From Escherichia phage TanjaMuster_Bas81, in sequence record PQ850630.1: a stretch of 47,623 bases of DNA. One strand, given 5' to 3'. Shown piece after piece: positions 36,773 through 41,762 of this stretch. The position numbers were made by a program, and so were the translations under genes. The notes under the pieces were generated by a model. The model did no database searches, had not been told where the DNA came from, and saw only the letters and a program-made list of their open reading frames with translations. Each line of letters starts with the position of its first letter. Within the stretch, counting starts at the first letter, position 1.

Positions 36773-37723
36773 TTATAAATTAAATTGCTTCTTGAACCAT
36801 TCAGGCGTTTCCATTTCTATGACAGGATTACCTATTGAATAACCCGGCCACGAATTGGCTTTTTTACACGCCTTGTAAATTTCCATAGCTCCATGCAACT
36901 GAATGCGACCGATGCGCAACTGCTCTTCCGTTAATCTAATTAACGCAGGAATAAACGGTGCTTTCTTTTCCTGAACTAAAAGGTTTACCGAACGAGGCGC
37001 ATGACCGTATGCCGCAACAAACATATCGTGTTGCATAGCCATTTTCATGAAGTAGCCAAGTCGCGCAGCATGTCGGAAAAACTCTTCAGGCTTGGCGCTA
37101 ACTGCTGTTTTGTAGTCAATGATGTCTCCTCCTTTTGTCAGGCAGTCAAAGCGAACTTTTGCTTTTTCTCCATTAAGCTCACCGAGAATTGACACTTCAG
37201 CATAAGCACCAGCAAGAAGACTGCTGTAATAGCTATTTGCGTGGATTACAGCACGCATTTGCTGAATGGATTCATAATCACCACCTTCCAGCATTTGCCT
37301 TCCTGCAGCAGATTTTTCAGCCTCTTCACGGATAACATCGTAAATTTTAACTGGTTCGCCAGTCGCCTGAATGATTTTAATCACCTCAGCCTTCGACTTT
37401 CCAGAAAGCCCTTTAATTCCTCGCTCTTTCGCCCATGAGTTCATGTCGCTCACGGTAACAAGCAGGTCATCACCAAAATCTTCTTTGGTTGGCATGCGAG
37501 CATATTCAGCATCAAAACGCTCTGGTTCAAGCAGAGCTGTATGACTTCCTGTACCGAAGATAAGTGCTTTTGACTGCTCATCTTCTTCGTCTTTGTAGCG
37601 CCATGCCGCTGGACAGCGGTCATAAATGTTCCACAAACCAGAGCCATTAATGTGCTCTGTGTCGGCGTGGTAATCCTCATTACTGAGTTCATTGTTGAAA
37701 TAGACTTTCATTGTTAACCTCAC
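36773..37723 (-). CDS. PD-(D/E)XK family exonuclease (RecE/YqaJ-like)
   Basis: motif FDCLTKGGDIIDYKT consistent with PD-(D/E)XK nuclease core. Confidence 0.55.
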   Translation of the reverse strand: MRLTMKVYFNNELSNEDYHADTEHINGSGLWNIYDRCPAAWRYKDEEDEQSKALIFGTGSHTALLEPERFDAEYARMPTKEDFGDDLLVTVSDMNSWAKERGIKGLSGKSKAEVIKIIQATGEPVKIYDVIREEAEKSAAGRQMLEGGDYESIQQMRAVIHANSYYSSLLAGAYAEVSILGELNGEKAKVRFDCLTKGGDIIDYKTAVSAKPEEFFRHAARLGYFMKMAMQHDMFVAAYGHAPRSVNLLVQEKKAPFIPALIRLTEEQLRIGRIQLHGAMEIYKACKKANSWPGYSIGNPVIEMETPEWFKKQFNL

Positions 37724-37748
37724 TCATCATCACGTAAATGAATCTACA

Positions 37749-38183
37749 TCAATCCACATCAAAAGGCAAGCCAAAATAGAAAAGTGTGGCTTTTTTTAGT
37801 TCATCAAGTCCATAAGCGATGGCGGCATAATGACCAAGCCTACACATCTCTGTTAGCACATCCGATTGCTCCTTGCTCACTCTGCTTTTACTTTTATCGC
37901 GGCGCTTTGACTCAATCATTCCGCAACTGTGATTTACACCCGGAGTCATTATTACGTTGTCGCCTATTCCAGTCTTAACTCCCATCTTCTGGCGCTTCAG
38001 CACAAACTGCACTCTGCTTGATGTGCCAGTTTCGTTTGGTACATGAAACCACAGAACATCAGGGAATCGGTGTTGCATCCATGTGCCGTAACCCATCTGG
38101 TCAGTCTCCTCTTTAGGACACTCACCACGATAACCGCTATCAAATACCCATATACCGCTATCAAGCTGCTTCACTTTGCTCAC
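37749..38183 (-). CDS. VRR-NUC domain nuclease
   Basis: 144 aa with D...E.K-type nuclease motif arrangement resembling VRR-NUC. Confidence 0.5.
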   Translation of the reverse strand: MSKVKQLDSGIWVFDSGYRGECPKEETDQMGYGTWMQHRFPDVLWFHVPNETGTSSRVQFVLKRQKMGVKTGIGDNVIMTPGVNHSCGMIESKRRDKSKSRVSKEQSDVLTEMCRLGHYAAIAYGLDELKKATLFYFGLPFDVD

Positions 38184-40098
38184 CTGTAAAATCTTTTCTG
38201 TGGATTATGTCTCGGCCTTTATCATTAATACGATGCGTGATGCGTTTTGGCGATTTAATCAATCCAGCATACATCATGAATTGTTTTGCGTTCTGGCATT
38301 TCAGTATTTTCCCAGCCATTGACTTATCATCAAGGTGAGGAAAGATAGCCTTTGCCTTAAACATGTTTTTCATGTGAGTTGCGCCGCTATAAGGGTAGAA
38401 AACCTCGCTAGCCCATCCTTCTTTTCCGTCACAACGATTAATCCAGTAGCGATATAAAACCCCCTCTCCATCCTTCGTTAACTGAACCTTGAAATCCATA
38501 ACGTCAGCCCATTCATTATCCGTATACGCACGCTCATTCAGTGCCGCATTAGGGTCGCGCAGAACATGATCGCAATGTCGGCAATAACGCGCAGTAGGGT
38601 CATTTTTAGTCCCGCAACCATCATCAAAAATCCGTATTCCATGCTTGTCGAAACCGCAACGAATGTAGCTGAAAAATTCTTCGCATCGACCATCTGGCGA
38701 TAGTACATCTTTGCCAATGCAGCGGCGCGCATATGGGCTGTTCATTGTTCCGCATTTCGGGCACGGAACCTGTTCACCACTGCGCCTTGAACGCTGAGCC
38801 TCAGCTTCTTCCAGAATCGGGTCTTCATACAGCTGACCAAGCTCAAACATCGTGCCTGAGAAATCAAGAACCAGATGGTCTTCTTTATGATACCCAGCAT
38901 CAATTTGCTCCTTCTTCAGCAGGCGCATACCGCGACCAAGCAACTGGACAAGGAGAGTTAGCGACATTATTTTCCTGAGGATTACGCTTACATCCCATAG
39001 CGGAATGTTTACTCCGGTCGTCAGCGCGGCTATCTGGAATGTGTATTTTATTTTGCCAGTGTACGCATCCTTTAGAGCCTTACGTCTGGCTTTTTGCCCC
39101 ATATCTTCGGTGACAATAGCGTAGCTACCTTCTGGCAGATATTTAGCAGCTTCTAAACAATGCTTCTTGCCTGCGCAGGTAATTAACACTCCATTTCTAT
39201 CTTTTGTAAGCTCCATCACTTTGAGCATGATTTTCTGTGTGAGAGTACCTTGCTCAAGGATTTCTTCCTGCATCTGCTTAAGTTGTTCGGCAGTGAAGTC
39301 CTGCGTTCCGTCGATATCAGATCCACGGAATGCTGAAAGGTCGTAATGCAAATCATCAACATCATGAAGGCCAAAGATTGTTGGAACAACAAATCCGCGA
39401 TCTACCATGTACTTTGTGTCAATGTTTATTATTTCATTCTTCCAGTACGCACCTTTCATTGATTCAGTGCCACGGAATGGGCTTCCGGTGAATCCAATTG
39501 TTATCATTTCATGACCATGTTTTGCCTTGCATCTCCTGTTAAGTTCCGTAAGTATTACACCATATTGTGTTGTTGGATTCTCACTAATAATGTCCTGCCA
39601 CGGAACTTGGTGCCCTTCATCGCACAGGCAAAATCTGGGGGCAAAATCACTCAATCCACCTTTCTTAACGTCACCACTTGATTCATCTTTTTTATCAAAA
39701 AGTGCGTTAACGATTGTTCCTTCAGTTCCGCATATAATAGGGTATGCTGTACTTTTCCTGCCAAGAGATGCGCTATAAAGAGAATTTTTTACACCGCACT
39801 CCCACATCATTTCAGCATTCTGCTCTGCTATTTCCCCCTGCCTTGAAATAACAAGGCCATCCCACCCCATATCCTGAAATCTACTGCAAAGCATTGAAAT
39901 TATCACGGTCTTTCCTGATGAAACCGACGCTGTAACATAGCTTGGTTCAGGTTTCTTGCCAAAATTACGAATAACCTCAGCGCACTTTGCGTAAACAAGC
40001 CATTGGTAATCATATGGCTCTATGGAGCCTAATTTTATTGATTGCTTTAACTTCTCAATATTAATCTCTGAAATCATTTTGTCTATTTTGTTCATCAC
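38161..40098 (-). CDS. SF2 (DEAD/DEAH-box type) DNA helicase with C-terminal zinc-finger region
   Basis: Walker A-like SSGKT, DEGH motif II, helicase C-terminal motifs, multiple C-terminal Cys pairs (CPKCG, CRHCDH). Confidence 0.7.
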   Translation of the reverse strand: MMNKIDKMISEINIEKLKQSIKLGSIEPYDYQWLVYAKCAEVIRNFGKKPEPSYVTASVSSGKTVIISMLCSRFQDMGWDGLVISRQGEIAEQNAEMMWECGVKNSLYSASLGRKSTAYPIICGTEGTIVNALFDKKDESSGDVKKGGLSDFAPRFCLCDEGHQVPWQDIISENPTTQYGVILTELNRRCKAKHGHEMITIGFTGSPFRGTESMKGAYWKNEIINIDTKYMVDRGFVVPTIFGLHDVDDLHYDLSAFRGSDIDGTQDFTAEQLKQMQEEILEQGTLTQKIMLKVMELTKDRNGVLITCAGKKHCLEAAKYLPEGSYAIVTEDMGQKARRKALKDAYTGKIKYTFQIAALTTGVNIPLWDVSVILRKIMSLTLLVQLLGRGMRLLKKEQIDAGYHKEDHLVLDFSGTMFELGQLYEDPILEEAEAQRSRRSGEQVPCPKCGTMNSPYARRCIGKDVLSPDGRCEEFFSYIRCGFDKHGIRIFDDGCGTKNDPTARYCRHCDHVLRDPNAALNERAYTDNEWADVMDFKVQLTKDGEGVLYRYWINRCDGKEGWASEVFYPYSGATHMKNMFKAKAIFPHLDDKSMAGKILKCQNAKQFMMYAGLIKSPKRITHRINDKGRDIIHRKDFTGEQSEAA

Positions 40099-40670
40099 CT
40101 ACTCCTGCTAAAATCACCGTGTAATGATTTTCTATATTTCTTTATGGCGTTACCTGCTTCCTCTGCTGTATTAAAGTAACCAAGATTAAATCTCCTGCCG
40201 TTAACCGCTATCCTTGCTCTCCACTTTTTACTTTTTGCATCAAAGCCAACCCCTTTAAATCCAGATTGGTTATCAATTCTGATTTTCCTATTCATGCAGT
40301 TTTCGCTTGGTTTTGCCTCTCTTAAATTTAAGATGGCGTTATTTGATTTATCTAAGTCGATATGGTCAATCTCAAATTAAGGCCACTTCCCGTTAACATA
40401 AAACCATGCAAGTCTGTGGGCCATAAACCTGTATCCACCTATAACTATGCGTACATATCCGGTATTCTCAACATATCCAGCTCTCGGTGAGTTACTGTGA
40501 TTACCATTTCTCCACGTAAAAATTCCTGTTGATTTTTCATAATTAATTTTTGATTTAAGAAACTCATGGCTTAGCGATGACTCCTTTTGCTTTCTTCTCT
40601 CTAAATTTCTTGACTCTGCACCTGACAGAGCAGCACTTCGCCTTTGCAGTTCCGATGAACTCATTTCCAC
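40095..40670 (-). pseudogene. HNH homing endonuclease gene disrupted by in-frame TAA stop (N-terminal fragment 40377..40670, C-terminal AP2 fragment 40095..40295)
   Basis: same reading frame across TAA at 40377-40379; translation ...HRLAWFYVNGKWP*FEIDHIDLDKSNNAILNLREA...MNRKIRIDNQSGFKGV aligns with intact paralog 541..1056 ([35 protein letters not shown]). Confidence 0.6.
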
Positions 40671-40701
40671 AAACCTCGCACTTCTTTACGGTGATCGCCA
40701 T
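40564..40701 (-). CDS. small zinc-ribbon protein (45 aa)
   Basis: manual translation MAITVKKCEVCGNEFIGTAKAKCCSVRCRVKKFREKKAKGVIAKP; GAGGT RBS; overlaps out-of-frame with 5' part of HNH pseudogene. Confidence 0.35.
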   Translation of the reverse strand: MAITVKKCEVCGNEFIGTAKAKCCSVRCRVKKFREKKAKGVIAKP

Positions 40702-40808
40702 TTCATAACCTCTATTGTAACGATTAATTGTTTCATTTCAAGTAACGATTGATTGTTTCATGCGAGTAAATTACAATGATTCTACATCATCGTCAACAGG
40801 AAGATTTT

Positions 40809-41762
40809 ATGAGATACGACTGGAAAGACATTGAGCCAAAAATGCTCGGAAATTGGCAGGCCGCCATCATGTCTATCGTCAATGTGGATAGCAGAGTTTT
40901 CAATGGCAAGCACCAGCCATGCCCGTCATGCTCAGGAAAAGACAGATATCGCTTTGATGATAACTTCGAAACAAAAGGCGATGGCGGCGCAATATGCAAT
41001 CAGTGCGGGTCCGGCAGCGGCATGAACTGGCTGATGAAACTTTCAGGCATGAACTTCCCTGAAGCACTGGAGGCGCTTGGTGGATTCCTGAACATGCACC
41101 CACGCGAAAAGCTGGAGGCAATCAGGAAGGAACTACCGAAGATAAATTACAACGATGACTTCATCACCGAGCAGGAAGTAGCCGCAATCATGTCTAAAAC
41201 GACGCGTGTCGCGATGAGTGAGTGGACTTTGATAAATGGTATTGGTTGCGACGTTAGCGTCGTCAGAGGGAAATCTGGGGAGCTTATTGCGGTTGAGATG
41301 GTGCGCGCTGACACAATGAGTCCGTGCAACGTGGCATTCATTGGCATGGATGGTGATGCATTCAGAACATTCTACAAAGCAGGATATAACAAAGACTCAG
41401 CCATAAACGGCAAACTCACACGAGGCGCGATAAGCCCAATCGGAGAAGATAACGGAAAGTTCATTTATCTGGTGTCTGATTATGCCGACGCGTGGAAATG
41501 CCATTACTTCACTGGCGCGCATGTCTGGTGCTGCTGGTCGCCGGAAAATATGTGGGAAGTGGTGCGCTCGGTTAGCGGTGAGACGAAAGCAAGGTTACGC
41601 TGCATAGTTAATTATAAATTTGACGAGCTTTGCGCTGCGGAAAATGCAGGACTTCCGGTGATGCTGCCTGATGATTCCGACACAATCAGGATGGCGAAGC
41701 GAATCAGAAGAAAGATTTATGACGCTGGCGAGTTGATAGAGAAGATCTCAGTTTGCAGATAA
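40809..41762 (+). CDS. DNA primase (N-terminal zinc-ribbon plus TOPRIM-like domain)
   Basis: CPSCSGKDRYRFDD...CNQCG zinc-binding motif as in phage primase-helicases; AGGAAG RBS before ATG 40809; TACAAT -10 at 40771-40776. Confidence 0.65.
   Translation: MRYDWKDIEPKMLGNWQAAIMSIVNVDSRVFNGKHQPCPSCSGKDRYRFDDNFETKGDGGAICNQCGSGSGMNWLMKLSGMNFPEALEALGGFLNMHPREKLEAIRKELPKINYNDDFITEQEVAAIMSKTTRVAMSEWTLINGIGCDVSVVRGKSGELIAVEMVRADTMSPCNVAFIGMDGDAFRTFYKAGYNKDSAINGKLTRGAISPIGEDNGKFIYLVSDYADAWKCHYFTGAHVWCCWSPENMWEVVRSVSGETKARLRCIVNYKFDELCAAENAGLPVMLPDDSDTIRMAKRIRRKIYDAGELIEKISVCR

Follow-up and report, generated by a model that had tools for sequence, protein, structure and literature searches.

We examined a compact cassette in the genome of Escherichia phage TanjaMuster_Bas81 (PQ850630.1), whose full stretch of 47,623 nucleotides (nt) is referred to here as the window. 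The cassette occupies positions 40095-40741 on the minus strand and fills the intergenic slot between the helicase and primase genes of this approximately 47.6-kb enterobacterial siphophage, which is related to the Cedarrivervirus and Macdonaldcampvirus phages. As we read it, the cassette would consist of a sigma-70-like promoter, a 45-amino-acid zinc-finger gene and a 189-codon nuclease gene whose start is buried in the zinc-finger gene, and it is very likely that the nuclease gene is a freshly inactivated HNH-AP2 homing endonuclease gene carried in a compact freestanding unit. The features of the locus are listed below.

40095..40664, minus strand: predicted pseudogene of a freestanding homing endonuclease with HNH_3 (HNN-type) and AP2 domains, 189 codons, Glu96 changed to TAA
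40377..40379, minus strand: premature TAA, with coding-strand T at 40379 in place of G (GAA, Glu96)
40377..40664, minus strand: open reading frame (ORF) of the N-terminal fragment, 95 amino acids from ATG 40664 or 97 amino acids from GTG 40670
40299..40367, minus strand: HNH catalytic core, codons 100-122 (D100, H101, N109, N113, L114, R115 and N122), sequence intact
40095..40295, minus strand: 66-amino-acid AP2-only ORF from M124, with the AP2 domain at about 40116-40265
40564..40701, minus strand: treble-clef-type zinc-finger gene, 45 amino acids, cysteines C8, C11, C24 and C28, AGAGG upstream
40662..40677, minus strand: probable internal nuclease start within zinc codons 9-14, GAGG at 40677-40674, 9-nt spacer, ATG at 40664-40662
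40714..40741, minus strand: putative sigma-70-like promoter of the cassette, TTGAAA, 16 nt, TACAAT (10 of 12 positions)
40717-40736 and 40742-40761, minus strand: two 20-nt direct repeats, ATGAAACAAT[C/T]AATCGTTAC, 95% identical with 25-nt spacing

The minus-strand frame from ATG 40664 to TGA 40095 has a single interruption, the TAA at 40377-40379, and its read-through translation runs VEMSSSELQ...GKWP, TAA, FEIDHIDLDKSNN...ENCMNRK...SRSR, TGA. The N-terminal fragment contains a leader of about 27 unconstrained residues, an N-terminal beta domain and the HRLAW helix and is without the catalytic core, and 27 sense codons separate the TAA from ATG 40295. In Pfam searches the stop splits HNH_3 (PF13392), with the N-terminal fragment covering profile positions 2-16 and the downstream piece positions 19-44. 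The joined read-through protein scores 52.1 bits for this domain (cut-off 24.8) and the separate fragments, which carry partial HNH_3 only, score 13.6 and 28.1 bits. AP2 (PF00847) scores 33.8-36.0 bits (33.8 on the read-through protein) against a cut-off of 33.3, and in PHROG the read-through protein matches phrog_99, HNH endonuclease, with an E value of 2e-64. The coordinates and translations of both fragments and of the TAA in a preliminary description of this locus were confirmed, and what they delimit is one HNH_3 domain cut in two. In a 53-sequence family alignment the columns D100, H101, N109, N113, L114, R115, N122 and N125 are invariant. AlphaFold2 modelled the intact protein with a predicted local distance difference test score (pLDDT) of 93.3 as an N-terminal helix, a beta domain and a beta-beta-alpha motif, with a three-stranded sheet and a helix at the C-terminus. 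The top Foldseek matches of this model were I-HmuI (E 8e-4) and plant AP2 domains, and its AP2 part superposed on the AP2 domains of AtERF1 and TEM1 with a root-mean-square deviation of 1.1-1.3 Å over 48-51 residues. A PDB sequence search with the nuclease returned a single weak match, I-HmuI, at a non-significant E of 0.41.

No close copy of this endonuclease lineage was found among 50,697 phage records (INPHARED; megablast and blastn), where matches were limited to the flanks and the 5' module of the cassette and the best tblastn hit was 48% identical. A protein index of metagenomes, by contrast with its next best match of 49%, yielded a protein of 189 amino acids (P0001) that is 100% identical over 99% of the read-through query. 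P0001 is encoded on six metagenome contigs and the same locus is also present on a 47.6-kb Logan contig (L064); these are the intact orthologs for which the preliminary description had proposed a search of relatives. The gene order primase, cassette, helicase is common to all seven independent contigs (L058-L064), which align with window positions 39900-41000 without gaps at 96.5-99.2% identity. At position 40379 the coding-strand base is G in seven of seven relatives and T in the window, giving GAA (Glu96) as the ancestral codon, so that the Glu or Lys codon earlier thought to have been replaced is Glu in every relative. An uninterrupted frame with both domains is likewise present in the seven orthologous contigs and absent from the window copy. 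The ortholog proteins differ from that of the window at codon 96 and at the last residue, with four more substitutions in L064, the most divergent of them, and the near-identity of P0001 across both window fragments, which exceeds by far what chance would give, bears out the common origin of the two. The P0001 cluster has 49 members, of which the 15 listed are 189 or 109 amino acids long (the latter from M82) and all span codon 96. The exact sequences of the window fragments (95/97 and 66 amino acids) were not found in a collection of about 15 billion proteins. Further private substitutions of the window fall within the same 1.1 kb, at 40763, 40280 and 39901, and the stop change therefore fits ordinary lineage divergence. 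On the simplest reading the stop is a private and very recent G-to-T nonsense change, and the recently decayed homing endonuclease that the preliminary description had offered as one of two options is the option supported by intact GAA alleles in seven near-identical relatives.

The stop falls four codons before the catalytic Asp-His and the next possible start is M124, with no ATG, GTG or TTG between 40376 and 40296. The catalytic residues D100-N122 lie between the stop and M124 and therefore neither fragment can cut DNA. We propose that the G-to-T change at Glu96, found in this genome only, would leave a 95-amino-acid stub without an active site and an AP2 DNA-binding domain without a credible start. 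With the nuclease dead the element would no longer be able to home, and this stage of decay would correspond to the first step of the cycle of invasion, fixation and decay that is usual for homing endonuclease genes. Judged by its reading frame, the window copy is a pseudogene of the HNH_3 plus AP2 family and not an active member. An inactivated endonuclease gene is in itself ordinary and already well precedented.

The zinc-finger gene overlaps the first 33 codons of the nuclease ORF, with the nuclease frame at +1 relative to its own. It is open (41-51 amino acids) in 28 of 28 unique nuclease-linked versions, and the cysteines C8, C11, C24 and C28 (CxxC...CxxxC) show no variation either in 12 diverse sequences or in the 28 unique ones. 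Third positions of the zinc frame account for most variable sites, 11 of 12 across codons 1-12 and 20 of 21 across codons 13-33. The ratio of nonsynonymous to synonymous polymorphism (pN/pS) is 0.14 and 0.31 in the zinc frame as against 1.47 in the nuclease (+1) frame of the same stretch, and constraint moves to the nuclease frame about 120 nt past the zinc ATG. A chance ORF is ruled out by these pN/pS and codon-position patterns, and the zinc ORF is a real gene under purifying selection. The preliminary description had already recorded a 45-amino-acid zinc ORF overlapping out of frame behind a good ribosome-binding site; the ORF exists and AGAGG precedes it, but it was undervalued there, being a conserved gene of a mobile cassette.

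The 5' 170-190 nt of the region (about 40588-40775) are 85-90% identical among relatives with unrelated nuclease bodies. Within this phage group the zinc ORF was found only together with a +1-frame nuclease ORF. It accompanies at least four nuclease architectures and occupies two insertion sites. Vibrio phages 1.276.O and phiHSIC carry the zinc ORF in different genomic surroundings, with a phrog_953 HNH gene overlapping it in the +1 frame, and a metagenomic phage has the order primase, zinc ORF, EndoVII-like gene (+1, 11-nt overlap) and helicase. The zinc gene is co-mobile with nuclease genes and part of the mobile unit. We also considered whether, in this phage group, the zinc ORF had belonged to the helicase operon ancestrally as a backbone gene and rejected this, the ORF being absent from 19 empty slots and arriving with a nuclease at the second site. 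Stand-alone zinc ORFs occur in unrelated phages, among them Yersinia phage P400 and Pseudomonas phage 15b, and on two metagenome contigs. On one JGI contig (3300023276; L098, 2501-2680) a stand-alone zinc ORF keeps the internal GGAG and ATG together with an open +1 stub of 38 codons (MEQPKRKCVVESAE...) that resembles a Vibrio-type nuclease leader, followed by a glucosyltransferase-like gene, and this arrangement looks like a cassette that has lost its nuclease and kept the zinc gene. In most GenBank relatives the zinc ORF is unannotated (e.g. MK947460 SB28, PQ850597 Bas80 and AM491472 Vi II-E1), LPST10_00001 being an exception.

Of 30 nuclease-linked zinc ORFs, 29 have within the overlap a start codon in the +1 frame, at zinc codon 13 or 16, with GGAG or GAGG 8-9 nt ahead of it, and in those 29 the +1 frame is open from this internal start onward. 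The count leaves out the L101 ORF, in which the nuclease start lies near the end of the zinc ORF, and the start codon is ATG, or GTG in L076. Three stand-alone zinc ORFs have TAC or CAC at the equivalent codon, no ATG, and a closed +1 frame. When synonymous codons were resampled, an open +1 frame with the ATG was kept in about 17% of trials per sequence. Stops in the +1 frame upstream of the internal start are tolerated in several lineages, that of the window included. The nuclease is probably translated from the internal Shine-Dalgarno sequence and ATG rather than by a +1 frameshift. The preliminary description had seen no in-frame start codon for the nuclease, and this did not hold: ATG 40664 (and GTG 40670) is present with GAGG 9 nt upstream, and the start is called in the intact orthologs and in SB28. 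An upstream ATG (MKQLIVTIE...) was also tried as the true nuclease start and rejected, the frame being closed by stops in the window lineage, in L029 and in all of clade L. Many GenBank records, RefSeq versions and Bas80 start the nuclease coding sequence at a non-conserved upstream ATG and so cover the zinc ORF.

The promoter-like site upstream of the zinc gene is conserved in relatives, reads TTGACA-17-TAATAT in clade L and is carried with the cassette at the second site, and we infer promoter activity for the TTGAAA-16-TACAAT of the window. The 20-nt repeats flank the -35 hexamer and are a possible candidate for an operator; in the divergent clade L a pair of ATGAAAC... repeats is retained with equal spacing. 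Only 12 nt separate the end of the -10 hexamer TACAAT from the zinc ATG (40702-40719), which would give a leader of about 5 nt without the AGAGG. Either an upstream promoter would be used or the zinc ORF would be translated from a near-leaderless mRNA. As a separate observation, the motif TGATGTAGAWTCATT has four copies in the window against 0.35 expected (2885-2899, 25893-25907, 37737-37751 and 40775-40789, all minus strand). All four precede a leftward gene by 30-60 nt and contain a -10-like TAGAAT or TAGATT, three of them have a -35-like hexamer 17 nt upstream of it, and two mark precisely the two sites at which relatives carry zinc plus HNH cassettes. The motif could represent a leftward promoter family or a shared insertion or target context.

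Several points weigh against a freshly inactivated endonuclease in a cassette of this build. The nonsense allele is unique, since all seven relatives and all listed members of the P0001 cluster read through the codon, and the protein is otherwise unchanged save for its last residue. Conservation is the sole basis for the internal nuclease start. The distance from the -10 hexamer to the zinc ATG is so short that the AGAGG taken as a ribosome-binding site might be outside the transcript. The zinc ORF also stands alone in other phages and its role need not be tied to a nuclease. A unique stop in an otherwise unchanged protein would fit a base-call or assembly error, in which case the phage would truly have GAA at 40377-40379, the endonuclease would be intact and there would be no decay. 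We consider this improbable. The change is a substitution and not a homopolymer indel, an odd type of error for a finished consensus, and the private substitutions elsewhere nearby in the window weigh against it. Inactivated HNH-AP2 copies are moreover common, with another in the same slot of a relative (L037) and further published cases (PMC2248197, PMC10448857).

A different alternative concerns the overlap and is compatible with the stop as a real inactivation. The zinc ORF and the nuclease would then form a single gene, with a programmed +1 (or -2) frameshift near zinc codons 33-40 producing a zinc-HNH-AP2 fusion in which the zinc finger would serve as the N-terminal DNA-binding domain. 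Three observations speak for this: relative to the zinc ORF the nuclease is invariably in the +1 frame, in four architectures and in distant phages, the same finger family is fused in frame elsewhere (P0232, P0133 and about 20 of 115 long relatives with HNH domains), and Arg34 of the zinc ORF is always encoded by a rare AGA or AGG codon. However, no conserved slippery motif was present across 31 unique sequences, the P-site codons before AGR varying among TTT, TTC, TGC, CAC and CAT, and the overlap has no stable RNA structure (z 0.51, no better than shuffled). What is conserved instead is a Shine-Dalgarno sequence with a +1 start, lost in the stand-alone zinc ORFs, and the openness of the +1 frame from that start is not needed by a late frameshift. 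The zinc ORF also occurs alone in other phages. Rfam gave nothing near threshold at the overlap, its sole match being isrN at 17.6 bits (gathering 44) inside the helicase gene. On balance we think it unlikely that recoding joins the two frames.

The second option of the preliminary description was a split gene with a still expressed AP2 protein. In this case the 66-amino-acid AP2 ORF, the 95-amino-acid N-terminal fragment or both would be expressed and retained in a DNA-binding or regulatory role. ATG 40295 opens an intact AP2 ORF, and both AP2-only remnants and co-opted DNA-binding domains of endonucleases are documented (group V proteins, PMC2248197; CapR and the plant AP2 parallel, PMC10448857). 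Yet ATG 40295 has no Shine-Dalgarno sequence at 5-13 nt, the nearest GAGG being about 20 nt upstream, and the AP2 fragment has the same sequence as the intact allele, so nothing in it is adapted to a split. The split allele is also private and very young, which leaves no time for selection. An expressed AP2 protein is unsupported and a functional split appears very unlikely to us. Read-through of a tolerated TAA, with full-length nuclease still made at a useful level, can practically be dismissed, as nothing specific speaks for it beyond a downstream frame that is still fully open, the stop is seen in no relative and hence is no conserved recoding site, and its context is TAA followed by T, with TAAT being the most efficient termination signal in E. 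coli and read-through of so strong a terminator therefore unlikely.

For the zinc-finger gene, we looked at the family and predicted fold of the product. The zinc ORF of the window has no Pfam match at E <= 1, and homologous small zinc ORFs give sub-threshold matches only, to the NinG N-terminus, DUF2116, zf-FCS and zf-MYND. Its AlphaFold2 model (pLDDT 81.5) has strands at residues 4-7 and 14-17 and a helix at 26-38, which would be a zinc-knuckle hairpin plus helix, and the closest structural matches, to YacG (probability 0.9) and an FCS finger, have weak E values of 0.26-2. An exhaustive profile search gathered 1506 zinc-finger relatives at E <= 0.001, many of them 40-60 amino acids long and many with 3-12 tandem fingers. 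Among the 115 longer relatives 10 have PF01844 HNH, 8 have HNH_5, 2 have HNH_3 and 17 have NinG; longer relatives pass the DUF2116 and NinG models and Ecl1 models are matched strongly as well. In P0232 a finger at the N-terminus is joined to a T5orf172 nuclease domain, and P0133 combines HNH_3 with ten fingers. A word-indexed search of 5.8 billion clustered gene calls found only 8 proteins of the family, and where an in-frame zinc-HNH fusion in close homologs was concerned it returned short proteins only, the distant fusions coming from the profile search. The finger is fused recurrently to HNH and T5orf172 nucleases and is therefore a recurrent nucleic-acid-binding module of mobile nucleases. 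We infer that the 45-amino-acid zinc protein binds DNA, for targeting or for regulation, as a partner of the nuclease. Going further, the zinc gene might be an obligate, separately encoded partner, either a targeting subunit or a controller akin to C proteins that binds the 20-nt repeats and times nuclease expression, with the overlap keeping the two genes paired during swaps of the nuclease body. We put this forward tentatively and regard it as possible rather than likely.

The slot that holds the cassette is bounded by two genes.

38161..40095, minus strand: helicase gene, downstream, right boundary of the slot, ATG at 40095-40093
40776..41762, plus strand: primase gene, divergent, left boundary of the slot

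The helicase ATG and the nuclease TGA share an A (TGATG). A separate AGGAG lies 6 nt upstream of the helicase, and expression of the helicase should therefore be independent of the nuclease ORF. In the window the primase ORF is given as starting MILHHRQQEDF-MRYDW, with the part ahead of MRYDW at 40776-40808. Empty-slot relatives start at the Met of MRYDW, and the first 10 primase codons are not conserved. The true primase start in the window may be 40809, and the TGATGTAGAATCATT motif would then be intergenic.

A primase probe recovered 55 loci from IMG/VR, of which 53 were informative, and the slot was occupied as follows.

19 of 53 loci: slot empty, 63-78 nt from primase to helicase
3 of 53 loci: an unrelated 87-amino-acid ORF
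6 of 53 loci: an HNH-AP2 gene and no zinc ORF
15 of 53 loci: zinc ORF plus HNH-AP2, several lineages, 31-43% identical to that of the window
4 of 53 loci: zinc ORF plus an EndoVII-like protein with a C-terminal HNH (Bas80 type, phrog_1035)
6 of 53 loci: zinc ORF plus a 358-amino-acid chimera of both (Vi II-E1 type)

Presence and absence are polymorphic at a fixed site, with 19 empty loci versus 31 with some nuclease between the same flanking genes, and the slot is a hot spot for nuclease genes. The zinc ORF alone was seen in none of the 53 IMG/VR relatives and it was absent from all 19 empty slots. The N-terminal alleles of the helicase do not follow nuclease type, which fits nuclease genes lying at recombination boundaries (PMC10448857). 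One relative (L037, IMGVR_UViG_3300045988_069625) has an HNH-AP2 gene in the slot that was inactivated independently: a frameshift immediately ahead of the AHRLAW helix splits it into ORFs of 97 and 106 amino acids, with the zinc ORF intact. In six loci of the Vi II-E1/Skate type (L006, L011, L021, L028, L054 and L057) the 358-amino-acid 'HNH endonuclease' is a chimera, with an HNH_3 module that has IEH in place of the usual IDH as its N-terminal part and a zinc-finger plus HNH body of the Bas80 type as its C-terminal part. This composition suggests that one endonuclease gene recombined into another.

The second site of the cassette is a 25-nt gap at 37724-37748, between genes for 144 (37749-38183) and 316 (36773-37723) amino acids, and is empty in the window. 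Three relatives, L083 (7350-8020), L069 and L044, carry there a discrete insert of about 670 nt comprising the promoter-like element, the zinc ORF and an overlapping HNH-AP2 gene. Elsewhere in the window, the copy between terS and terL (526-1056) that the preliminary description regarded as an intact paralog is also an endonuclease, but at 37% identity over 165 amino acids it belongs to a different lineage and reflects no recent duplication.

Taken alone the stop is one more snapshot of the earliest decay of a homing endonuclease, with intact siblings still circulating. What is new is a zinc-finger gene, conserved but mostly left unannotated, that extends across the nuclease start and is mobile together with the nuclease, a variant cassette architecture of modest novelty. 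In dozens of records of Salmonella, E. coli, Klebsiella and Vibrio phages this gene lies out of sight beneath the 5' end annotated for an 'HNH endonuclease' gene, and at minimum the gene models of this phage group are corrected. If the zinc protein does target or regulate the nuclease, it would explain the exchange of nuclease bodies behind a common 5' module and would offer a simple system in which to study the control of selfish nucleases in therapeutic-type phages. Were it an obligate partner, a two-gene homing endonuclease module would have been systematically missed by annotation pipelines.

Among known systems, the genes of controller (C) proteins such as pvuIIC/pvuIIR offer a parallel in layout. 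In both (PMC2997769), a gene for a small DNA-binding protein lies immediately upstream of the nuclease gene and overlaps it, with promoter repeats and a very short leader, and the arrangement provides a possible analogy for delayed or limited expression of the nuclease. Set against C-protein systems, the cassette has a zinc finger in place of a helix-turn-helix and no methyltransferase partner, and the likeness is one of analogy only and not of membership. The zinc protein itself resembles treble-clef and FCS-like fingers (DUF2116, the lambda NinG N-terminus and YacG) in its CxxCG-x2-F...(F/Y)CS-x2-CR pattern and in the hairpin plus helix that its model would suggest, and differs from them in scoring below Pfam gathering thresholds, in fold matches with E > 0.1 and in being a separate overlapping gene. 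Nothing indicates that it inhibits gyrase as a counterpart of YacG. For the nuclease the best structural match is I-HmuI of Bacillus phage SPO1 (PDB 1u3e; E 8e-4, probability 1.0). In both, a DNA-binding beta-sheet region at the N-terminus precedes a beta-beta-alpha-metal motif, with an identity of 21% over aligned columns and a TM-score of about 0.4 setting them apart. I-HmuI is in addition encoded in an intron, and where the nuclease here has AP2 it carries another type of C-terminal DNA-binding domain.

The nearest kin are the freestanding HNN/HNH_3 plus AP2 homing endonucleases of phages (Magnani et al. 2004 family; Xp10/OP1/Xop411, PMC2248197; ICP1 IPA-HNH, PMC10448857). The window copy has the same order of an N-terminal beta domain, the HRLAW...WP, DH, NN/DNR, NLRE and EN boxes and then AP2, and shares with the family a freestanding intergenic position, multiple divergent copies per genome, presence/absence polymorphism and decay by point mutation after fixation. 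Degeneration of HNN-AP2 endonuclease genes after transmission has been described in Xanthomonas phages (PMC2248197), and in ICP1 a frameshift has divided an HNH/AP2 endonuclease gene into gp115/gp116 (PMC10448857). Our literature searches returned no description of an overlap between a zinc ORF and an endonuclease gene. It is in this that the cassette differs from the HNN-AP2 family, with a nuclease whose ORF starts inside a conserved zinc-finger gene, in its +1 frame, and travels together with it.

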